In this document: positions 9,856 to 32,000 of the stretch, piece by piece | Numbering within the stretch: the stretch's first letter is position 1 | Layout: each line of letters begins with the position of its first letter | Program-made: the position numbers and the translations under genes | Notes under the pieces: model-generated | Told to the model about the DNA's origin: nothing | Databases searched by the model: none | The model's input: only the letters and a program-made list of their open reading frames with translations | Assembly: GCF_900079115.1 (NCBI RefSeq) | Contig: NZ_LT549890.1 | Location: forward strand, 2,550,001-2,582,000 | Source: Saccharolobus solfataricus | Lineage (GTDB): Archaea; Thermoproteota; Thermoprotei_A; Sulfolobales; Sulfolobaceae | Direction: 5' to 3' | DNA length: 32,000 nucleotides

Positions 9856-10414
9856 GATTACTATATTTTATTCTGCTCATACTTGAAGTTAACGTTGAAA
9901 GATGGACTAACTCACGCTTTGTGGTCTTATTGGATTTTCACAAAGACTTAAGAGGTATTGCAAAGCTAATGGGCATGGGTTACAATTCTGTTATTTTAGT
10001 ATAAATCGTATAAAGTATTCGTTTATTTCCAAATTCAACATATGATTTAGATTTTGAAAAAAAGAAGATGCCGCAATTCCTTAGTCTTTTCCCAAAAATT
10101 TGGTTACGCAATTGAAACATTTGACGAAAGTGAATTAGAGGAATTTAAACTGAGTTTCGAATGAATGAAATTATGCTTATATTCAGCTAAATTGAAATAA
10201 AAACTATAATATAATAGTTTAGTGTAAAGTTACTTAATAGACCAATTAAGTAGTTTGTTTATCTAATTTTAAGAAGTGTGCGGAGGGAAAAATTTTATCT
10301 TAACGGGGGTTAAGGGATCTTCCGCCCCCTTCCTCAAGGGGATGGATAGCCCCCTTATATAAAAGTTTTTTAACTAATCTAAATCATATATTTCTTACAT
10401 GATAGTTACCAATG

Positions 10415-10622
10415 GAGTAAGCGTCACCGAGACGCCTTGGTTAAAGCGAGGGTCAATGAGGTACGCCTCTGCTCCAGACAGTAGCCCCAAAGGCGGTAAC
10501 AGTGTCATGGTTAATGAGTTTCGTTCGGGGTCGGAACGACCCTTAGTGTGGAGCTCTGCCCTCTACCGCTGGCAAGGTGGGGGTATGAGGCAGGAAGCCT
10601 TGTAGGGCAGGGTAGTTCACTC
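10415..10622 (+). mobile_element. MITE-like element or solo IS end related to the IS at 1-633
   Basis: A GC-rich block in an AT-rich spacer, ending in an exact 19-nt copy (10603-10621) of the IS terminus at 615-633. A possible degenerate left inverted repeat, GAGTAAGCGTCACC, starts at 10415. The left boundary is uncertain. Confidence 0.45.
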
Positions 10623-10859
10623 GTATGTCTTGCCCTTAATAACGGTAATTTTCACCTCACATGGTATGTCTTTCGTAATTTGTGTATTGTCAGTACCTCT
10701 TGGTAGATAGCTTAATCTCGTTGAAGCTCGTATCTGACTTCCTACGATGTTGGAATTCATATCTGCTATAGAAGTTTTCTACTAAACTGTAGTATTATAT
10801 GTCCAAATATTTTTCCATATAGAAGATTATCCAGATTAATCTATTAGAATTTGATTAAT

Positions 10860-10889
10860 TTTACACTATTATTATTTACACTATTATTA
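10860..10889. repeat. perfect tandem duplication of a 15-bp unit (TTTACACTATTATTA x2)
   Basis: Read directly from the sequence: 10860-10874 and 10875-10889. Lies just 3' of the UDG stop codon. Confidence 0.9.
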
Positions 10890-10897
10890 GGTAATTT

Positions 10898-18079: not shown

Positions 18080-18186
18080 CTTTAATCATAATATTTCTTA
18101 TCTACTTATATCTTAAATAATGATTATAGTCTAGTTGCCTTATTTAGATAATGACTTATATAGCTGTTTAACCTTTCTTGTTAGTT

Positions 18187-19923
18187 ATGAAAACACTTGG
18201 ATTCATCTCAAATCAGATAACATCAGCCCTAATTGATTTATCTTCAATTGTTTGGTTTCCAGTTCCTAAGTTCGACTCCCCGTCAGTGTTCACTAGGTTG
18301 TTAGATGAAGATGGAGGAGAGTTTTCTATATTACCAGAAGGACAAGAAATAATAGCTGTTAAACAAGAATATGTTTATCCATTAGTATTAATGACTGCCA
18401 TACGTACTAAACAAGGCGAAATAAGTATTACTGATCTCATACCATTGGGTGAAACAGTAATTATAAGAAAGGTTGAATCGGAAATTCCTTTTAAGGTCGT
18501 GTTTAAACCTAGATTCTATTATTCTCTATACAAGCCCATAATCGATGGTAATAGATTTGTAAATCCAAGAGGAAGGGATTGTATGGCGTTTCTTTACGAC
18601 TTTTCGGGCGAGGTCAAAAGATCTGGAAATTATGTTTGGAATTTTAGTAATGGGAAAGGATATTTAATAGCCAACTATGCCTCTGACGTTAAACATGGGG
18701 TTTTCAGTGAAAGGGGTTCAACGTTAAATGCCATATATGAAAGATCGTTTGAAAATACGATAAACTATTGGAAAAGTATTGATGTGAAAGACGCTAAATC
18801 ATTTAATGACCTTTATAAGGCATCCATATATACAATGCTAGGCTCTATTTATGCGCCTTCTGGAGGAGTAATTGCAGCTCCTACAACTTCTTTACCAGAA
18901 GTTGAAGGTGGAAAGAGAAATTGGGATTATAGATTTGCATGGGTAAGAGATTCTTCGATCATAGCTGAAGCCTTGTTAGAAGCTGGATCCATTGTAGAAG
19001 CTAGAAGAATAATAAACTTCTTACTTTCGCTCATAAATTTCTCGTCAAAGCCATTTTACTATCCCCTATATACGATAGAGGGCACAATTCCTCCCCCTGA
19101 GAGGGAATTACGATGGCTATCTGGATACAAGAACTCTAAACCAGTAAGAATAGGAAACGGAGCTTCTTCTCAGATTCAATTAGATATTGAAGGATTTTTC
19201 ATTTCGGCTCTTTATAAATATGTAAAGATGACTAATGATCAAGTGTTTCTGAAAGACGTTTTTAGTAAAGTGAAGTACATTGGGGATTGGATATCAGAGA
19301 ATTGGAGCTTAAAAGATTCTGGTATTTGGGAGGATAGGGGGAGTCCTCAACACTATACTCACTCTAAAATTATGATGTGGATAGCACTAGATAAAATAGG
19401 GAAACTAGCAAACTTAATCGGATATGCGGACATTTGGGCTAAAGAGAGGGAAAAGCTTAGAAACTGGATATTCACTAACTGTGTAAAGAACAATTATTTT
19501 ATCAGATATTGTGGGAATACTGATGACGTAGATTCATCATTATTATCAGCACCATTGTATGGGTTCATTGAAGTTAGTGATAGTACATTTATTAATACAC
19601 TAACGAAAATCGAAAACGATCTAAAAACCGACGTATTTGTGAAAAGATACAAAACTGATTTCATGGGAGAAGCTAAACACCCATTTTTGTTGACTACAGT
19701 GTGGCTTGCTAGAGTTTATATGAGATTAGGAAAAATAGATAGTGCTATAGAAATCTTGAATAAGATCAATAAGGTTTCAAGAGAACTACATTTAGTAGGT
19801 GAACACGTTGATGTGGAAAAAGGGGAGTTTACGGGTAACTTTCCTCAGATTTTTGTTCATGCGCAATTGGTAATTGCAATAAAAGAGCTTAACGACACGT
19901 TAACTGATAAAAATATTATATAG
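18187..19923 (+). CDS. glycoside hydrolase family 15 (glucoamylase/trehalase-type), paralog 1
   Basis: About 578 aa from the ATG at 18187 (the track TTG at 18178 is 3 codons upstream). Carries the GH15 hallmark PSGGVIAAPTTSLPE...RNWDYRFAWVRD. The catalytic Glu contexts GIWEDRG and LVGEHVD are present. Confidence 0.85.
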   Translation: MKTLGFISNQITSALIDLSSIVWFPVPKFDSPSVFTRLLDEDGGEFSILPEGQEIIAVKQEYVYPLVLMTAIRTKQGEISITDLIPLGETVIIRKVESEIPFKVVFKPRFYYSLYKPIIDGNRFVNPRGRDCMAFLYDFSGEVKRSGNYVWNFSNGKGYLIANYASDVKHGVFSERGSTLNAIYERSFENTINYWKSIDVKDAKSFNDLYKASIYTMLGSIYAPSGGVIAAPTTSLPEVEGGKRNWDYRFAWVRDSSIIAEALLEAGSIVEARRIINFLLSLINFSSKPFYYPLYTIEGTIPPPERELRWLSGYKNSKPVRIGNGASSQIQLDIEGFFISALYKYVKMTNDQVFLKDVFSKVKYIGDWISENWSLKDSGIWEDRGSPQHYTHSKIMMWIALDKIGKLANLIGYADIWAKEREKLRNWIFTNCVKNNYFIRYCGNTDDVDSSLLSAPLYGFIEVSDSTFINTLTKIENDLKTDVFVKRYKTDFMGEAKHPFLLTTVWLARVYMRLGKIDSAIEILNKINKVSRELHLVGEHVDVEKGEFTGNFPQIFVHAQLVIAIKELNDTLTDKNII

Positions 19924-19945: not shown

Positions 19946-21139
19946 GTGATAAGGCCAGAGTTATGCATAAGATGTAGAGGGGCAAAGTATCTTTGCGGTC
20001 TTTCATACTGTCCAATCATAGTTAATACTAAAACGGTAAGAGTAAATTTCAAGGAGGTATATGGTTCTTCCCCACCATCCGTCTTTGTAGGTAGATTTAG
20101 TTATCCCAAAATTACAGTTTATCCCTCTGCCCCACCAATTTTAGGGGATACGAGTAAGTTTGAAGATTCCAAATATTGGCTCAATGCTGACTTAAGTGAG
20201 TTCTTATCAATGAGGCTTTCCTTAGTGAGAGGTGGTGTCAAATATCACAAAGATGATGCAAGACTACCAGATAGGTTTTTACTAGATATTCAGAGTATAA
20301 CAATATCATCGAGACCAGTTGAATTGGATTTAAGGCTGAAGAGAATACCTTCTGGAGGTATTTTAGATGAAAGTCTGCCACCTCTAGGTCCTTCAGCACC
20401 ATTGGAAAAGCTTGAGATAGCCACATTGCCTCCTCCCTTAGCAGTAGTAGAGAAGGTTTATGTTGATAACGATATGAGGGCAAAAGATGGTATAATGAAA
20501 TTATATAATGCAGGGATTGACGTAGAAAAAATATCCAGGATATTAAGTATTGGTGGAATTGGAAAGGAAAGAAAATTAGTACCTACTAGATGGAGTATAA
20601 CAGCAGTGGATAAGGCTATTTCCGATACTCTAATTGAGAATATAAAGAATTATGACACGATAGACAAGGTTGAAGTTTATTTCAGAAAATATAATAAGAA
20701 TCTTTTCATCGCAATTCTTCTTCCTAGAGATTGGAGCTTTGAATGGGGAGAAGCCTGGTATCCTGGAAGTACCTGGAATAAGTTTGGCAACTATGTTGAT
20801 ATAGAAGTGGATAACGAAAGGTATCATGGTAGATCTGATTATCCAGAAATAGGCGGTTGTTATTATGCTTCTAGATTAGGTGTGACGGAATTCTTGGCAA
20901 GCAGAAAGAGACAAGCCACTGCAATATTATGGAGGGAGATATATGAAGGATTTAACTTGCCAGTAGGTGTTTGGTTTGTTAGGGAAAACGTTAAGGAAAT
21001 GTTTAAAGGTAAGCCAGTAGTATTTGACGACATAAGTACTGCCTTAAATTTCGTTAAAAGATTATTAAGATCTGATTTAAAGCAGTGGTTAAGTAAGTCA
21101 TTACTCTCCTTTAATACCATTGATAAGTGGTTAAAATGA
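19946..21139 (+). CDS. nreA: archaeal Nre-family DNA repair protein
   Basis: 397 aa with a GTG start. The N-terminal Cys cluster CIRCRGAKYLCGLSYCP is typical of Nre N-domains. The extreme C-terminus FNTIDKWLK fits a PCNA-interacting (PIP-like) xxxIxxWL tail. Confidence 0.65.
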   Translation: MIRPELCIRCRGAKYLCGLSYCPIIVNTKTVRVNFKEVYGSSPPSVFVGRFSYPKITVYPSAPPILGDTSKFEDSKYWLNADLSEFLSMRLSLVRGGVKYHKDDARLPDRFLLDIQSITISSRPVELDLRLKRIPSGGILDESLPPLGPSAPLEKLEIATLPPPLAVVEKVYVDNDMRAKDGIMKLYNAGIDVEKISRILSIGGIGKERKLVPTRWSITAVDKAISDTLIENIKNYDTIDKVEVYFRKYNKNLFIAILLPRDWSFEWGEAWYPGSTWNKFGNYVDIEVDNERYHGRSDYPEIGGCYYASRLGVTEFLASRKRQATAILWREIYEGFNLPVGVWFVRENVKEMFKGKPVVFDDISTALNFVKRLLRSDLKQWLSKSLLSFNTIDKWLK

Positions 21140-21912
21140 TTGTAAAGTCCATTAGGGTGAAATCTGCTTTAAGTAAATCTGGATTGAAAGAGTTAAACTA
21201 TAGTCTAAATCCTTATTTAGGTTGTGTATTTTCTTGCCCCTATTGTTATGCCCCCAATTTCACTCCAGATAGGGAGGCTTCAGAAAATTGGGGGAAAGTT
21301 GTAGCCGTTAAGGAGAACTTGCTTGAGGTTTTAGAGAGAGAAGTGAAAATCTATAAGAGGGGAGTAGTTGGGATATCTACAATAACTGATGCTTATCAAC
21401 CGATAGAGGCTTTAAGAAAGCTTACTAGGGAAAGCCTAAAGATATTATTAAAGAATGGTTTCAGAGTTTCAATTCAGACTAAGTCACCCTTAGTTTTAAG
21501 GGATATTGACGTACTCTTAGAATACAAGGATAGAGTTGATGTTGGATTTACAGTTACTAGTTTAAATAATAAGTTAGAACCTAACGCACCTCCAGCTAAA
21601 GGTAGATTAAGAGCCTTAGAGGAACTCAGTAATGAAGGGCTGGAAACTTGGATTTTCCTAGGACCTATTATTCAAGGTGTAAATGATACTGAGGTAGAGA
21701 ATATAATTCGTGAAATTTCAAATATCAAAGCAAGGGTAATTTTCGATAGTTTTCATTACTATAGGGGGTTAAAATTTAAGGAGGGTTCTATACATTGGTG
21801 GGTTAATTTGAAGAATAAAATATTAGAGAATTGTAAGAGGTACAGTATAGAGTGCCATGAACAAAGTGAGGACTGGATTTATGAAAAAAAGAGATATTAT
21901 AAAACCTTTTAG
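21136..21912 (+). CDS. radical SAM protein, SplB-like ('DNA repair photolyase' COG group)
   Basis: Contains the CxxxCxxC motif CVFSCPYC. The ATG at 21136 overlaps the nreA TGA (ATGA at 21136-21139). The track's GTG at 21127 lies 3 codons upstream and is less likely. Confidence 0.75.
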   Translation: MIVKSIRVKSALSKSGLKELNYSLNPYLGCVFSCPYCYAPNFTPDREASENWGKVVAVKENLLEVLEREVKIYKRGVVGISTITDAYQPIEALRKLTRESLKILLKNGFRVSIQTKSPLVLRDIDVLLEYKDRVDVGFTVTSLNNKLEPNAPPAKGRLRALEELSNEGLETWIFLGPIIQGVNDTEVENIIREISNIKARVIFDSFHYYRGLKFKEGSIHWWVNLKNKILENCKRYSIECHEQSEDWIYEKKRYYKTF

Positions 21913-24729: not shown

Positions 24730-25539
24730 ATGCCCTATGCAGAAGAAATGGAAGTGAAAGCTAGTAGATCTCAATTACTGTCATTCTTTATAGACCCAGT
24801 GAGATTTGCTGGAATATTAGGTCACCTGATGATTGTGAATATATTTGATAAGGCCGAAAGTAAATTCGTAACAATGGGTAGTCTAAAAAAGCCTGAAAAT
24901 AAGTTCAAAGTTCTTTATTTAATCGGAGATCCAGAATCACGATTAATAACGTTTTCAGGTATAATGGAGGGACCTACACTTACGTTTAATACCATTACAT
25001 ATAAGGGAGAAGGAGATAATGGGAAATTAACGTGGAGGATAGATCTTATCTTAACAGAATTAGGTAAACTAACAAGAATGAAAGTTGCTGCAGATGTTAA
25101 GCAAAGCTATGGTTTTCTAGATAGAGTCAGAATAGGAGATTTTGATTTTGCAACGCATTTAGTAAAAGAGCATGTAATACCATTTGTTAAATTTTATTTT
25201 AAGCCCTCTATCTTGGAAGAAACTCCAGTCCTCAATGAGGTATTTAGATTTAGAGGGAGTGTTGAAGAGGTTATATTGAAATTAAGAGAGGTTATAGTAA
25301 ATATTAAACAAGGAGGTATAATTATTCTTGGAGATGATTATAATATAATAACATCCATAGTCAATGGAGAAGTCTCTCATGCTCAGATAAATAATATGGA
25401 TGTACCTGGAAGTGAGGTTTTTGCATATCTACTTAAGGCGAGCGGAAATGTAGAATTAATAGCCTATGATATTTCCTTAGATGACTTGATATTTAAGAAC
25501 TTAAAAAGAAGATTGGAGGAAGTGAAAGCTAAATCATGA
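24730..25539 (+). CDS. hypothetical protein (N-terminal half possibly SRPBCC/START-like)
   Basis: 269 aa with an ATG start and AT-rich TATA-like sequence upstream. The fold suggestion is weak and based on pattern only. Confidence 0.55.
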   Translation: MPYAEEMEVKASRSQLLSFFIDPVRFAGILGHLMIVNIFDKAESKFVTMGSLKKPENKFKVLYLIGDPESRLITFSGIMEGPTLTFNTITYKGEGDNGKLTWRIDLILTELGKLTRMKVAADVKQSYGFLDRVRIGDFDFATHLVKEHVIPFVKFYFKPSILEETPVLNEVFRFRGSVEEVILKLREVIVNIKQGGIIILGDDYNIITSIVNGEVSHAQINNMDVPGSEVFAYLLKASGNVELIAYDISLDDLIFKNLKRRLEEVKAKS

Positions 25540-26574
25540 TGTTTTTTGCGTAATTACGCAAGAAGCAGCGCTACTAATTAATCTAGGTGCAATTTGCTCA
25601 GTGATCAAATATACCTCATAGTCCTTTTCTTTGGACAAGTACTCGACGTTAAGGTCAGAGAACACTAATATGTCAAATCCCTGCTTACTGATGACGTAAA
25701 TTTCATCATTACTAACTATGTCCGTAGGTACTACATTCCCTATTTCCTTTATCATTTCAATTTCGTAGGTGCCACTTCTATCAACCACCCTGAAGGTTTT
25801 AGAGTAGTTTAAGCTAGACATTAGTATGTAAACGTCTTTACCGAATCCTTCTCGAGTTAAATTTTCATACGCTCTTAGAACATCGAGTAGTATATTTCCA
25901 GCGACATTCCAGTCAGAACCTGTAATTTTCAAGCCGATTTTTAGAGGAGATAACGGATGATTTTTTAATAATAAATAATTCTCCATCTTAGCAAAAGATT
26001 TTCCAGCTAATACGGCTGTTCTTCTCGAATCGCTCTTCTGACCCAAATAAAATTTTACTTGAGAATTAATTAACGGAACTTCATAGAGTGATGCACTTTT
26101 GCTTTGAATTATATCTCCGGAATCCTCTTTTATTTCTGATAAAGGTATGGTGGTAAACTCATATTTTATTGTATTTCCTATATTCCTCATTATTCTACTC
26201 GACACAATTCCCTCAGTTATCCAGCTCACTATATGGTCTTTGGAAATCTCCTTACTACTAGTTGGAATTAAAGGAAAATCCTTGGTTTCACCAATCAGTT
26301 TTGAAGCTTCTTCCCATCCCTTTTTAAAATAACTGAAATCCTCTGGAGAAACTTGATATAGTAGTCTTAGGAATTCTCCAAAATGAGTCATTTCCTCTTT
26401 AGTTATGTCTTCATGTACTTTTCTTAATTTCTCGTCATCAATATATTTATTTTGTTGTAGATAAAAATTTATAGCATCTATTTCTGCAGCTATTGCATTT
26501 CTTATAGCTCTGACTGATTCCTCTTTATCAAATTTTTCTTTTCTAGTTAAAGTTGAGGGATCATTAGAGAACAA
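25534..26574 (-). CDS. encapsulin nanocompartment shell protein with fused N-terminal ferritin-like (EncFtn/Flp) domain
   Basis: 346 aa with a TTG start. The N-terminal ~95 aa carry the EncFtn di-iron pattern (AAEIDAINFY ... KEEMTHFGEF, i.e. Glu, Tyr and ExxH). The C-terminal ~235 aa align by eye with HK97-fold encapsulins, for example YILMSS...IYVISKQGFDILVFSDLNVEY...YEVYLITEQIAPRL against the T. maritima and P. furiosus PfV C-terminal blocks. Overall length and N-terminus match the P. furiosus Flp-encapsulin fusion. Confidence 0.85.
   Translation of the reverse strand: MFSNDPSTLTRKEKFDKEESVRAIRNAIAAEIDAINFYLQQNKYIDDEKLRKVHEDITKEEMTHFGEFLRLLYQVSPEDFSYFKKGWEEASKLIGETKDFPLIPTSSKEISKDHIVSWITEGIVSSRIMRNIGNTIKYEFTTIPLSEIKEDSGDIIQSKSASLYEVPLINSQVKFYLGQKSDSRRTAVLAGKSFAKMENYLLLKNHPLSPLKIGLKITGSDWNVAGNILLDVLRAYENLTREGFGKDVYILMSSLNYSKTFRVVDRSGTYEIEMIKEIGNVVPTDIVSNDEIYVISKQGFDILVFSDLNVEYLSKEKDYEVYLITEQIAPRLISSAASCVITQKTS
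25542..25561 (+). terminator. T6 tract plus perfect 16-nt palindrome directly after the stop of 24730..25539
   Basis: TTTTTT at 25542-25547 and TTGCGTAATTACGCAA at 25546-25561. The palindrome lies inside the last codons (CVITQK) of the convergent encapsulin gene. Confidence 0.4.
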
Positions 26575-26808
26575 AACTTAGCACCCATTACTCTATAAGC
26601 GTTTACGTATAAAAGTTATAAAGTCTCTTTGGCTTTATCTACAATTGCACTCATTAGCTAGTTTGTAGATTTTTATCAGATATTTAAGAATCATTACTAA
26701 CTTAAATTGTACACTTTAACATTGACCGAAATGGAGATAATATAGTGATCTAGTGTAAAAATATTCAATAGGTAAATCAAGCAAATACTCACTCTCTTTT
26801 CCCTTATA

Positions 26809-28158
26809 TTAAAGGGCGAGGTTTTCTGTCTCATTCCTTGTAGGTGTTTGATATTGATCGAAAAGGATCTTTAATCTCTCTTCTAATAGGAAGACGTCAC
26901 CATTCAATATTTTCACAACTTCTAGCGTAGGGATATTTAGTGTGTAAATGTTATTAATATTAGTAGCGGTGTTTGTTATTACGAATCTTCCCCTAACCTT
27001 ATATACTTTCTTATCATGTTCCACTTCCTCAATTTTGCTTAACAATTTCAATTCCTCATAGTTATATAAGCTTCCGTCATTTGAAAATACTACATCTCCC
27101 AAGTATACTTGATCATCCACAATGAAGAATAAGCCTACTACAATAGACTTTCCGTCAACTTCAATTCTCTTTCCTCTTGGATGAACATAGCTTATTCCAA
27201 ACTCTTTACTAATATTGGATAGTAACTCTCTAACCTTCTTTTCAAATTCCTTAGCGTCAACTTCTGGATTCCTTAGACTTGTATATTTTCTCAATTCACT
27301 TCTAATACAATCTATGTTATTTTTCTCACAAACTTTTTCTACCTTATCCATCTCATTTCGTATGAACTGTAATATTGAACTGACATTAGTTATCTCTTTA
27401 CTATTCCATAGTGTTATAATTATTGGTAGAATGTCCTCTGTTAGATCTTTACAATAGGCTTCTACAATTTCCTTTATGTCCTCACTTGTTAACGCGTCAT
27501 CTAGAGGAATTCTGCTCTCCTCTATTCTCCTTCTTATTGCTAAATCAGAAACCTTGCTGTAAACCTCAGTAGGCATTGCCATAATTATCGGTATATCAAG
27601 TCCTGCGTTAATTAGCCTGTGTATTAGACTTAAGTGATAATCCCTTATTTCATCAATTAAAAGTACTAGCTTACTCAAATTCTTCATATCTCTTAACGCA
27701 TTAATCATTCCGTCGAAGTTTCTTTCATAGCTCAAACAATAAACCCTTAGAAAGGGATTATTATATTTATTGCAAATTTTTAGCAACCAATCCTCAAATT
27801 TAACTCCCATCAATCTTTTCCAAAAAGAATATCCAAGCTTACCCTTTATCTTCTGCAGTTCAAGTAAAGCCTTTTCCCTCAATTCGAATTGAGTAGTCTT
27901 AGTCCAGAATTCCTCATCTATACTTTGTTTATTAGCTAAGTCTAAGTAAATTGATAAGTTATCAGTTTTTGTTATTTCCTCTATTTTCTTAAGTAACGTA
28001 GTCTTTCCCATACCAGGTTGTCCAACAACTGATGCCACTTCGTTATTTCTTACTATTTCTAGTGTCTTTTCTAAATATTTTCTATATGTTGGACCTACCA
28101 GTATAATGCTTCTAGATGACCATGTAGTTACAGTTACTCTTGGTATCTCACAAACCAT
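26809..28158 (-). CDS. P-loop (AAA+/archaeal-ATPase-like) NTPase with uncharacterised C-terminal ~140-aa domain (possibly nuclease-like)
   Basis: 449 aa. Walker A is GQPGMGKTT (27997-28023) and Walker B is LVLLIDEI. A lid-like segment reads RIPLDDALTSEDIKEIVEAY. The C-terminal region (EFEKKVRELL...RIEVDGKSIVVGLFFIVDD...) has alternating helix and strand character reminiscent of restriction-endonuclease-fold domains, but no clean (D/E)xK motif. Confidence 0.7.
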   Translation of the reverse strand: MVCEIPRVTVTTWSSRSIILVGPTYRKYLEKTLEIVRNNEVASVVGQPGMGKTTLLKKIEEITKTDNLSIYLDLANKQSIDEEFWTKTTQFELREKALLELQKIKGKLGYSFWKRLMGVKFEDWLLKICNKYNNPFLRVYCLSYERNFDGMINALRDMKNLSKLVLLIDEIRDYHLSLIHRLINAGLDIPIIMAMPTEVYSKVSDLAIRRRIEESRIPLDDALTSEDIKEIVEAYCKDLTEDILPIIITLWNSKEITNVSSILQFIRNEMDKVEKVCEKNNIDCIRSELRKYTSLRNPEVDAKEFEKKVRELLSNISKEFGISYVHPRGKRIEVDGKSIVVGLFFIVDDQVYLGDVVFSNDGSLYNYEELKLLSKIEEVEHDKKVYKVRGRFVITNTATNINNIYTLNIPTLEVVKILNGDVFLLEERLKILFDQYQTPTRNETENLAL

Positions 28159-28160
28159 AT

Positions 28161-28661
28161 TTATCTCCTCCTCTTAACTATTCCGTAAGTAACGCCTCTT
28201 CTCGTAAATCCCTCATCACCTCCAGCTATTAAATCGTAATTTTCCTCTACATATTTTCTAAATTTTGAGTAAAACTCTTCCTTAGAAAGTCCTAGTTCTA
28301 TCCTTATTCTCTCCAATGGCGCATATCCTAAAGAATCCCTTATCCTATCATAAGCCTCATCAAAATCCTTAGATGAAAAACTCTTTGATTCAACGAATTT
28401 CTGTAATAGGTCAAGCATTTTATGAATCTCATCCCTTAGTATTTTCAACTCGTCTTCTATGTTTATACTATCTAGCGGTTCAAAAGTGATTTTACTCCCA
28501 TTTTCAACTCTTCTTATTTTTCCCTCCTTCTCTAACTCCTCGAGTACATGTATGAGGTTTCTATCCTTAAACTTCCTCTTAATCTTAGATAATGAGACCG
28601 GTTTCTGTGAATCCTTATATTCACTCAATATAAGAGCAAAGACGTCATCCTTGCCAATCAT
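28161..28661 (-). CDS. winged-helix DNA-binding protein with coiled-coil linker and a conserved-looking C-terminal domain
   Basis: 166 aa. The N-terminus PVSLSKIKRKF..LIHVLEELEKEGKIRRVENG looks like a wHTH. A central heptad-like stretch reads EDELKILRDEIHKMLDLLQKF. Its stop lies 2 nt before the ATPase ATG, and a GAGGAGGAG SD-like run sits in its last codons. Confidence 0.6.
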   Translation of the reverse strand: MIGKDDVFALILSEYKDSQKPVSLSKIKRKFKDRNLIHVLEELEKEGKIRRVENGSKITFEPLDSINIEDELKILRDEIHKMLDLLQKFVESKSFSSKDFDEAYDRIRDSLGYAPLERIRIELGLSKEEFYSKFRKYVEENYDLIAGGDEGFTRRGVTYGIVKRRR

Positions 28662-30121: not shown

Positions 30122-30664
30122 CTATTTATCATTGCCCAAAAGATGTCTTCTTACAAATATTCTAATATCCTTAACCTTTTTGAGAGATTTCAAATTCGTT
30201 ACAATACTATCAACTTTTGCATTATCCTTTTCTCTAATATTTATACTCTCAGCCTCACTTCTCCCTAACTGATTTAAATAATACAATCTTTCTTTTTTTA
30301 GAATTAGACTCTTTTTTGATAAGGTATGTAAACGAGAATCTATTCTTGGACTATATACAAAATATCTTTTATTCCACTTAATTGAAAAAATCGGGTTTTG
30401 TATATTGTAATATCTGGATAAATAGTCGTAAAGTAAAAATGAGAGTACGAAAAGTCTAGTCTTGTCAATCCCTCCCCCATACTTATATATTGTAAACAAC
30501 GTTAGGGAGTCAACGGTCATGTGATAAGCTACTTCTTGTTCTTTACATAACTTTTCTACGTTACTTTCTGCTAATAACTTAAGAATATAATAGAGAGAAA
30601 CCCAAGACCCATATATTTCGATTTCGTCCAAAGCCTCCTTTAAGAGTTGTTGTAATCTATTCAT
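30122..30664 (-). CDS. hypothetical protein translationally coupled to GH15 paralog 2
   Basis: 180 aa. Its ATG overlaps the GH15 TAA (TAATG at 30662-30666). No firm family. There is a faint resemblance to DUF4065/Panacea-type domains (KTRLFVLSFLLYDY...KWNKRYFVYSPRIDSRL). Confidence 0.5.
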   Translation of the reverse strand: MNRLQQLLKEALDEIEIYGSWVSLYYILKLLAESNVEKLCKEQEVAYHMTVDSLTLFTIYKYGGGIDKTRLFVLSFLLYDYLSRYYNIQNPIFSIKWNKRYFVYSPRIDSRLHTLSKKSLILKKERLYYLNQLGRSEAESINIREKDNAKVDSIVTNLKSLKKVKDIRIFVRRHLLGNDK

Positions 30665-32000
30665 TAAACTAACCTCTCTTCTAGTTCCACTATTGCCACT
30701 ATTAATCCTGCATGGGGAAATGCTTGAGGAAAGTTACCCCTAGGTTCGCAAGTGTTCTGATCTAAGTGTTCAGCGAGTAATAATGATGATGTAGAACAGT
30801 TAATTAGCTTCTCAATTACTTTTTTCGCTCTGTCTACTTCTCCTAATCTAATATAAACCCGGCTTAACCATGTCGAGACTAGGGCAAAAGGATGTTTTAC
30901 ATTTCCCATAAAGTCATCCTTATATCTTAGTAATAAACCATCTGAAATCATTAAATCCCTCTCGATCTTCTCAAATGTCCTCAAAAATCTAGGATCTTTA
31001 GCATCTATAAAGCCGTATAGCGGTAAGGTAAGTAAAGCAGAATCTACTGAATTACTCCCGTAATATCTCGTAAAATAACCTAACTTTTCTGAATATCCGT
31101 TATCAAAAACGTCCTTTTTAATTTCTTCAGCAACATTAATCCATTCCTCAGCTTCATTTTTATATCCCAATTCATTTGCAAGTTTGCTAGCCCTATCGAG
31201 AGCTACCCAATCCATAACCTTAGTGTGCGTGAAATGCTCCTCTACTCCTCTTTGTTCCCATAAATCAGTACTCTTCCATTTCCAACTCTTCTTAGTCCAT
31301 TCCGCTATTGCCTCTATGGCCCACCATATTTCACTAATATATTCTGAATCTTTACTTGCATTATAATATTCGTATAGTGCATTCATATAAGCACCTTCAA
31401 CATCCATTTGTATTTGCATATACGCTGCATTTCCAACTCTTACCGGAAACGATTTTTTATGACCTTTTAGCCAATCTAGGATTTCCTCTGCTGGTGGCGC
31501 TGTTCCATCTATTGTATAAAGTGGATGATCAAAACTTTTAGACGAAGGATCTATCATAGCAGTTAGGAATCCTATTATATCCCTGGCCTTTACCAATAAT
31601 CCTGCTTTTATTAACGCTTCTGCAGAGTACGAAGCATCTCTAACCCATACATATCTATAATCCCAATTTCTCGACCCGCCGATTATCTCTGGAAGAGAAG
31701 TAGTTGGAGCTGCTATAATTCCTCCTGATGGTTCATAAATTAAGCCAAGAAGTACTAACAAAGATCTATAATATGCATCTACATACATGTTAACCTTTTT
31801 AGCGTTCTCTAACCTTCTTCTCCAATATCTTATAGCCTTATTTAAGGCTTCATACGGTTCAGAATAAACAAAGCCCTTATTACTGAACAGACCATATCTC
31901 AAATCCTTCGAGTAAAGCAAGTATATATAACCTTTACCCTTTTTCAAAACGAATTCAGTATCATCAATAGGTATGTATTCCCCACCTATTAGTATTTCCA
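30664..32000 (-). CDS. glycoside hydrolase family 15 (glucoamylase/trehalase-type), paralog 2; N-terminus off-window
   Basis: The frame stays open through position 32000. The track 'start' at 31947 is an internal TTG, and alignment with paralog 1 implies roughly 160 more N-terminal residues. Motifs: PSGGIIAAPTTSLPE, RNWDYRYVWVRD, DLWEQRG, LLAEHLD. Confidence 0.85.
   Translation of the reverse strand, partial: EILIGGEYIPIDDTEFVLKKGKGYIYLLYSKDLRYGLFSNKGFVYSEPYEALNKAIRYWRRRLENAKKVNMYVDAYYRSLLVLLGLIYEPSGGIIAAPTTSLPEIIGGSRNWDYRYVWVRDASYSAEALIKAGLLVKARDIIGFLTAMIDPSSKSFDHPLYTIDGTAPPAEEILDWLKGHKKSFPVRVGNAAYMQIQMDVEGAYMNALYEYYNASKDSEYISEIWWAIEAIAEWTKKSWKWKSTDLWEQRGVEEHFTHTKVMDWVALDRASKLANELGYKNEAEEWINVAEEIKKDVFDNGYSEKLGYFTRYYGSNSVDSALLTLPLYGFIDAKDPRFLRTFEKIERDLMISDGLLLRYKDDFMGNVKHPFALVSTWLSRVYIRLGEVDRAKKVIEKLINCSTSSLLLAEHLDQNTCEPRGNFPQAFPHAGLIVAIVELEERLV

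Follow-up and report, generated by a model that had tools for sequence, protein, structure and literature searches.

A ferritin-like fusion encapsulin gene of Saccharolobus solfataricus, very likely encoding a self-loading iron nanocompartment

When one gene joins a ferritin-like domain to a protein with the fold of a viral capsid, does it encode a cellular compartment, the relic of a virus or a misread pair of genes? This question is raised by a complete coding sequence at positions 25534..26574 (minus strand) of a 32,000-nucleotide stretch of the S. solfataricus genome (assembly GCF_900079115.1, contig NZ_LT549890.1, positions 2,550,001 to 2,582,000), hereafter the window. An earlier note, made from the letters alone, had read the product as an EncFtn domain fused to an encapsulin shell and had predicted an iron-mineralising nanocompartment that carries its own cargo. 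We hold with high confidence that the gene encodes a Flp-fusion (EncFtn-fusion) family-1 encapsulin of an S. solfataricus-type crenarchaeon, forming a self-loading iron nanocompartment. The assignment is based on the domain architecture, homology and predicted folds of the protein, on the conservation of its metal ligands, and on the start codon and stand-alone context of the gene.

The open reading frame (ORF) comprises 346 codons and a stop, begins with TTG and is unbroken in the ORF list, with no internal stop or frameshift. A phmmer search of the PDB with the whole protein returned the Pyrococcus furiosus particle protein PfV (2E0Z) over nearly the full length, query residues 1-338 aligning collinearly to positions 1-341 (E 2.3e-28); behind 2E0Z and the P. 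furiosus EncFtn domain 5N5E came Myxococcus xanthus EncC and several family-1 shells. The Pfam model Linocin_M18 (PF04454) matches residues 98-329 across positions 7-253 of its 253, at 150.9 bits (E 4.8e-44) and well above the gathering cut-off of 24.3 bits. An AlphaFold2 (AF2) model of the entire chain, computed from a 25-sequence alignment, reached a mean predicted local distance difference test (pLDDT) score of 86, with most of the shell part above 90, and comprises a three-helix N-terminal domain (residues 17-42, 48-75 and 77-93), a linker and an alpha/beta domain with a beta-hairpin at residues ~142-165. Foldseek placed 2E0Z chain A first among PDB entries (E 6e-19, template modelling (TM) score 0.84 normalised to the target, root-mean-square deviation 3.0 Å), and the top 50 entries are encapsulin shells only.

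On the evidence of profile and model, the C-terminal part of the protein is a family-1 HK97-fold encapsulin shell domain, as the earlier note had proposed by eye. It spans residues ~114-346 (25537..26235, minus strand) and carries a long E-loop hairpin at residues ~142-165. The shell domain is joined to the ferritin-like domain by a flexible linker, residues ~96-113 (26236..26289, minus strand), which is modeled with pLDDT values of 40-59 and differs in both length and sequence among homologues (alignment columns ~108-140).

The N-terminal domain, residues 1-95 (26290..26574, minus strand), folds in the models as three helices and resembles EncFtn proteins in sequence and predicted structure. 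The domain 5N5E aligns to residues 3-95 without a gap (phmmer against the PDB, E 1.7e-18), and EncC (7s8t) was matched at E 1.1e-5 in the same single-sequence search. A profile built from 15 homologues of this domain raised these matches to 1e-21 for 5n5e and 1.7e-8 for 7s8t and added EncB (7s5k/7s5c) at ~1e-3. The NCBIfam models EncB_fam (NF058679, E 5.5e-16) and ferrit_encaps (TIGR04535, E 2.4e-14) both match residues 8-97, so that each half of the protein has significant profile matches. Modeled alone, the domain has a pLDDT of 87, with helices at residues 17-42, 48-75 and 77-94 that form two long antiparallel helices and a short C-terminal one, the half-ferritin fold. Foldseek again ranked the P. 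furiosus structure 5n5e first, followed by 7s8t (EncC), 6suw, 3k6c, 5da5 and 5n5f, with TM scores of 0.62-0.75; the structures matched include Rhodospirillum rubrum EncFtn, NE0167 and Haliangium ochraceum EncFtn. The structural comparison with PfV thus favours the same relative for both parts of the chain.

The di-iron pattern that the earlier note had picked out in this region, AAEIDAINFY and EEMTHFGEF, is indeed there and is under strict conservation. Glu31 (codon GAA, 26482..26484), Tyr38 (codon TAT, 26461..26463) and the ExxH motif E61-M-T-H64 (26383..26394), all on the minus strand, align with 5N5E without a gap at an offset of +1, and therefore correspond to EncFtn Glu32, Tyr39, Glu62 and His65, for which functional roles are taken from the literature (PMC11202242; bioRxiv 10.1101/431494). 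In the R. rubrum and P. furiosus EncFtn proteins, Glu32 is a ferroxidase-centre ligand and Tyr39 lies beside the centre. E31, Y38, E60, E61 and H64 are invariant in all 25 aligned fusion homologues, down to 31% identity, and across this alignment the ferritin-like domain is far better conserved than the shell. The window sequence D56-ITK-E60-E61-M-T63-H64 fits the archaeal fusion-type signature DXXXEEXA(T)H, which replaces the bacterial HXXXEEXEH (PMC11202242). Alignment and predicted fold together identify the first ~95 residues as a ferritin-like domain of EncFtn type in which the di-iron ligands are conserved.

The following is inferred from homologues: the assembly of the protein and its T number, its activity as a ferroxidase, the mineralisation of iron and its role in the cell. 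The HK97-fold domain would self-assemble into an icosahedral shell, presumably of 180 subunits (T=3), given the homology to PfV, which is a 180-mer in the encapsulin literature, and published work on the S. solfataricus particle. The N-terminus is expected to face the lumen and to place a ferritin-like cargo domain inside on every subunit without any targeting peptide; because the domain sits on this lumen-facing end, each subunit would load itself. The isolated P. furiosus domain, Pfc_EncFtn, forms a decamer, has a di-iron centre and acts as a ferroxidase (bioRxiv 10.1101/431494), and iron hydroxide cores have been found in native P. furiosus fusion particles (bioRxiv 10.1101/2025.03.19.643997). 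In the window protein, the domains would likewise pair to create inter-subunit di-iron ferroxidase centres, each chain contributing Glu31, Glu61 and His64, with Tyr38 nearby. Fe(II) would enter through shell pores and be oxidised, and Fe(III) mineral would be deposited in the lumen. The expected outcome is that iron is stored and Fenton chemistry limited.

The host is aerobic and possesses other iron and reactive oxygen species proteins, a circumstance that counts for a different enzymology, in which the shell forms and the fused di-iron domain detoxifies peroxide or oxygen in the manner of rubrerythrin or Mn-catalase. Weak, sub-threshold similarities link the domain to KatB, a Mn-catalase (6j42/4r42), and to the Pfam models Rubrerythrin and Ferritin; several databases call homologues 'rubrerythrin', and the window protein has not conserved the secondary sites by which iron enters and leaves bacterial EncFtn. 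We nevertheless consider such redox chemistry improbable: the closest protein of solved structure, Pfc_EncFtn, which is 41% identical across the domain (Foldseek), combines a di-iron centre with measured ferroxidase activity, the native P. furiosus particles hold the iron hydroxide cores mentioned above, and the models of the window protein contain neither a rubredoxin-like domain nor a single-chain four-helix bundle. Iron oxidation and storage is the function that we favour.

Is the fused product itself real? Orthologues from Sulfurisphaera tokodaii, Acidianus brierleyi, Sulfuracidifex tepidarius and a Saccharolobus metagenome-assembled genome (MAG) begin with ATG at the exact position of the window's TTG (M-F-S-x-D-P-S), which supports the TTG start that had been proposed, and the S. 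islandicus encapsulin gene starts with TTG as well. No shorter product would make sense, as the next in-frame methionine, residue 62, falls within the ExxH motif. Both TTG-start genes carry GGGTG 8-12 nucleotides upstream of the start (26582..26586, minus strand, in the window), a Shine-Dalgarno-like box of putative function.

It is scarcely credible that the fusion is an artefact that conceals two genes, one ferritin-like and one for the shell, as annotated in P. furiosus DSM 3638 (PF1191/PF1192). The split annotations of P. furiosus and the 69-, 107- and 186-residue fragments in S. shibatae records would suit it, but the window ORF is continuous, the identical 346-residue product has been called on 101 contigs, and the single-ORF form, an N-terminal Flp domain followed by a shell, recurs in the 25 aligned homologues and in many database representatives, with dozens of divergent homologues among them. 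Moreover, the fused P. furiosus protein has been confirmed by peptides that span the junction (bioRxiv 10.1101/2025.03.19.643997).

Upstream of the gene, two TATA-like boxes, TTTATAA and TTTTATA (26608..26622, minus strand), form a candidate archaeal promoter, and the TTTTATA and GGGTG boxes are kept in the S. islandicus upstream region. The intergenic gap on this side (26575-26808) is longer in the window (234 bp) than in S. islandicus (90 bp): the two align at the end of the preceding NTPase gene and over ~60 promoter-proximal nucleotides, and ~150 bp are extra in the window. On the other side, a convergent ORF of 269 residues overlaps the encapsulin gene stop by 6 bp. Because of the 234-bp gap with its TATA-like boxes and the convergent downstream gene, the transcript is likely monocistronic. 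The earlier note had stated this outright; we retain it as plausible, and read-through from the co-directional NTPase gene upstream is also conceivable. A bacterial sigma-70 and terminator scan was disregarded as not applicable to an archaeon.

Homologues place the gene in a family that is already recognised. Searched exhaustively with phmmer, 1.84 billion representatives yielded 613 matches at E ≤ 1e-3, among which several dozen proteins (more than 40) of 320-375 residues share the fusion architecture and are matched over residues ~1-340, and many are stand-alone EncFtn proteins of 90-170 residues matched in the N-terminal domain only. The 90%-identity cluster of the window protein includes a 346-residue 'encapsulin [Saccharolobus solfataricus]' (XDF45693.1), and an adjacent cluster at 86% identity consists of S. 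islandicus proteins named 'encapsulin' or 'Linocin_M18 bacteriocin protein'. All named relatives belong to the Sulfolobales (Saccharolobus, Sulfolobus, Acidianus, Sulfuracidifex and Sulfurisphaera), in line with the crenarchaeal host that had been predicted. A scan of genome contigs for related loci returned one MAG locus only, and the locus context of orthologues was taken from exact-protein look-ups.

According to Andreas & Giessen 2021 (PMC8346489), Flp-fusion encapsulins occur only in Archaea, mostly in Crenarchaeota, and that article describes the fusion encapsulins of S. solfataricus and P. furiosus as T=3 particles with internal Flp, citing Heinemann 2011 for S. solfataricus. This fusion encapsulin is thus already known: it is annotated in public genomes, belongs to a published class, and the S. 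solfataricus particle has been studied experimentally.

In the more distant metagenomic fusion homologues (31-35% identity, 325-335 residues), the helix that precedes the E-loop is shorter by ~10 residues (window residues ~123-132) and the tip of the E-loop hairpin by ~11 (window residues ~149-159), within alignment columns ~146-185. The encapsulin literature links shorter E-loops to T=1 shells, and this short-E-loop clade may assemble differently.

Where a capsid fold meets an archaeal chromosome, the surrounding genes bear on whether the protein works alone and whether it belongs to a virus. Directly upstream and co-directional with the encapsulin gene lie genes for a 449-residue P-loop NTPase with weak AAA_22/STAND-like matches (26809-28158, minus strand) and for a 166-residue winged helix-turn-helix (wHTH) protein (28161-28661, minus strand), the C-terminal half of which matches the viral family phrog_38850 (E 1e-21). 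These two genes and the convergent downstream gene accompany the encapsulin gene in S. islandicus as well, but not in Sulfurisphaera, Acidianus or Sulfuracidifex. For the NTPase and wHTH pair, PADLOC and NCBIfam gave generic P-loop and wHTH noise and no assignment. Pfam scans of 27 other window ORFs detected no ferritin, rubrerythrin, Dps, DyP or haemerythrin, and a regular-expression search of every C-terminus among the 57 window ORFs of ≥60 residues found no family-1 targeting-peptide motif. These scans bear out the claim that no separate cargo gene lies nearby. Given a window free of ferritin, rubrerythrin, peroxidase and targeting-peptide genes, and neighbours that vary between genera, we conclude that the encapsulin gene stands alone as a self-loading system. 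A 345-residue ORF near the Sulfuracidifex orthologue, which has no Pfam match, was considered as a paralogue and rejected, as it shows no similarity.

Could the protein instead belong to a decayed or cryptic provirus of HK97-like type, as its major capsid protein, any particles being vestigial? The HK97 fold is common to the capsids of tailed viruses, a weak Pfam SU10_MCP match (E 9e-4) points the same way, and the uncharacterised NTPase and the wHTH protein with its PHROG match lie next door. According to the review PMC7355545, Heinemann et al. 2011 also found phage-like genes near the S. solfataricus gene. Against such a fossil provirus, the encapsulin protein matches no PHROG family, a tblastn search with it against 50,697 phage and virus records gave no match, and neither terminase, portal, protease nor integrase was found near the gene, which is surrounded by metabolic or uncharacterised genes. 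In Sulfurisphaera, Acidianus and Sulfuracidifex, the gene sits in differing, non-viral neighbourhoods, and di-iron ligands so strictly conserved speak for selection on an enzymatic role in the cell. A domesticated cellular function is favoured because these ligands are invariant and the cellular contexts vary, and we regard the fossil provirus as a very remote prospect for the present-day protein. A viral evolutionary origin is compatible with an iron-storing encapsulin, and the provirus idea, attributed to Heinemann 2011, may describe that origin.

A related proposal keeps the encapsulin and couples it functionally to the upstream NTPase and wHTH pair, as what is left of a packaging or regulatory module from an ancestral HK97-like virus, a module that would still govern expression or loading of the shell. 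We rate this coupling as highly unlikely. If true, the locus would be a living intermediate between capsid and organelle.

Several findings weigh against an iron-storing fusion encapsulin and have to be set beside the evidence above. Several curated cut-offs are missed: the shell model encap_f1 (NF041155) scores 38.2 bits against a cut-off of 100 and aligns only residues 225-341, and the ferritin-like domain falls short of EncFtn-like (PF22277, 20.9 against 27 bits), EncB_fam (58.6 against 90) and ferrit_encaps (53.3 against 125). The latter three describe free cargo proteins with a targeting peptide. Since neither these stand-alone-cargo models nor encap_f1 reach their cut-offs, the protein is, as judged from sequence scores, a divergent archaeal branch of both families, outside the mostly bacterial equivalogs. 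In the window protein, other residues occupy the secondary metal sites of bacterial EncFtn (A30/D33; D56/T63), as is also the case in Pfc_EncFtn, whose inner 'entry' site, Ala31/Asp34, is the counterpart of window Ala30/Asp33 (bioRxiv 10.1101/431494). The geometry of the particle also poses a problem, as 180 tethered domains amount to 18 decamers of D5 symmetry, a misfit with the symmetry of the shell (PMC11202242). Linkage to iron genes is absent in the window. Finally, some S. shibatae genomes, including B12, carry the orthologue annotated only as fragments of 69, 107 and 186 residues named 'Ferritin/ribonucleotide reductase-like protein', which suggests that the gene is disrupted there and hence dispensable. 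Our high confidence in a Flp-fusion encapsulin takes these points into account.

The remaining genes of the window, which has a GC content of 35%, are assigned by Pfam to permeases, an aminotransferase, an arginase-family protein, UDG, an M20 peptidase, HpaB, a CBS protein, DUF2173, a major facilitator superfamily transporter and an aldose epimerase, together with two GH15 glucoamylase-like paralogues and an Nre_N/Nre_C and radical-SAM region (18178-19923, plus strand; 19946-21912, plus strand; 30664-31947, minus strand). The GH15 paralogues flank the region. The Nre_N/Nre_C and radical-SAM genes lie ~4 kb from the encapsulin gene, with similar spacing in S. tokodaii, and a GH15 gene paired with a 177-residue gene occurs near the A. 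brierleyi encapsulin gene; both cases amount to loose synteny.

Far from the encapsulin gene, a GC-rich island (~10400-10650, plus strand; 53-58% GC) lies within a 1-kb gap without ORFs (9856-10897), preceded by a TATA-like box at ~10354-10365. Its predicted RNA fold is more stable than shuffled sequences on the plus strand (z -3.1) but not on the minus strand (z -1.3). The island has no Rfam match, and a metagenome scan with a 23-mer from it found nothing. Over positions 10525-10620 the island shares 71% identity with the 3' end of a TnpB-like gene of Acidianus two-tailed virus 2, labelled 'putative transposase', and one hairpin shows a compensatory change relative to that virus (GGGTCG-GAA-CGACCC against GGGTGG-GAG-CCACCC). 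No accompanying TnpB ORF is found in the window. The island is probably an orphan TnpB omega-RNA or a remnant of an IS200/IS605 right end. Just upstream, a short stretch rich in G/C hairpins (10292-10397) is ~72-75% identical to the S. islandicus plasmids pHVE14 (NC_006425, unannotated there) and NC_006424 (under a 'hypothetical protein') and similarly resembles unannotated DNA of Acidianus tailed spindle virus (~72-75%). It may be a small mobile-element-associated element.

As a discovery the encapsulin locus has little value, the gene being annotated and the literature covering the Flp-fusion class, the S. solfataricus particle included. It bears on questions that are already recognised, namely how 180 tethered half-ferritin domains are arranged in a T=3 shell, whether the decamer is retained, and what role the compartment plays in an aerobic, iron-rich and acidic habitat.

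Among systems described so far, the S. solfataricus encapsulin-like virus-like particle (Heinemann et al. 2011, Virology 417:362) is, judging from sequence, very probably the product of the same gene or of an allele. It is listed as a T=3 Flp-fusion encapsulin in PMC8346489, and its likeness to the window gene runs through the 90% cluster shared with XDF45693.1. We found no report of iron loading or ferroxidase activity of the Sulfolobus particle in the literature searched. Fusion encapsulins often lie near other ferritin-like genes (Andreas & Giessen, PMC8346489), in contrast to the window gene, which has no such gene nearby.

P. furiosus PfV (PFC_05175; shell 2E0Z, domain 5N5E) offers the closest comparison outside the Sulfolobales and is the best structural match for both halves. 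Like the window protein, it places an EncFtn domain at the N-terminus and joins it by a short linker to an HK97-fold shell. The lengths are 345 residues for PfV and 346 for the window protein, and the N-termini align without a gap at the head of the collinear alignment over residues 1-338, in agreement with the length class and N-terminal likeness remarked on in the earlier note. The two have the ferroxidase-centre residues and the archaeal DxxxEExA/TH motif in common, and Foldseek gives identities of ~20% for the shell part and 41% for the ferritin-like domain. They differ in their hosts, an anaerobic euryarchaeon for PfV and an aerobic acidophilic crenarchaeon for the window gene, and the latter is further set apart from PfV by its TTG start and by having no rubrerythrin or ferritin neighbour within the window.

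The two-component EncFtn and encapsulin systems of R. rubrum, H. ochraceum and M. xanthus (EncA with EncB/C) share a homologous cargo, with a Glu/Glu/His di-iron centre at the dimer interface, and a homologous family-1 shell. Their secondary metal sites differ from those of the window protein, which scores below the curated cut-offs of those families. In these systems the cargo is a separate protein that carries a C-terminal targeting peptide, whereas the window protein dispenses with the peptide and joins cargo to shell in a covalent fusion at a fixed 1:1 ratio.

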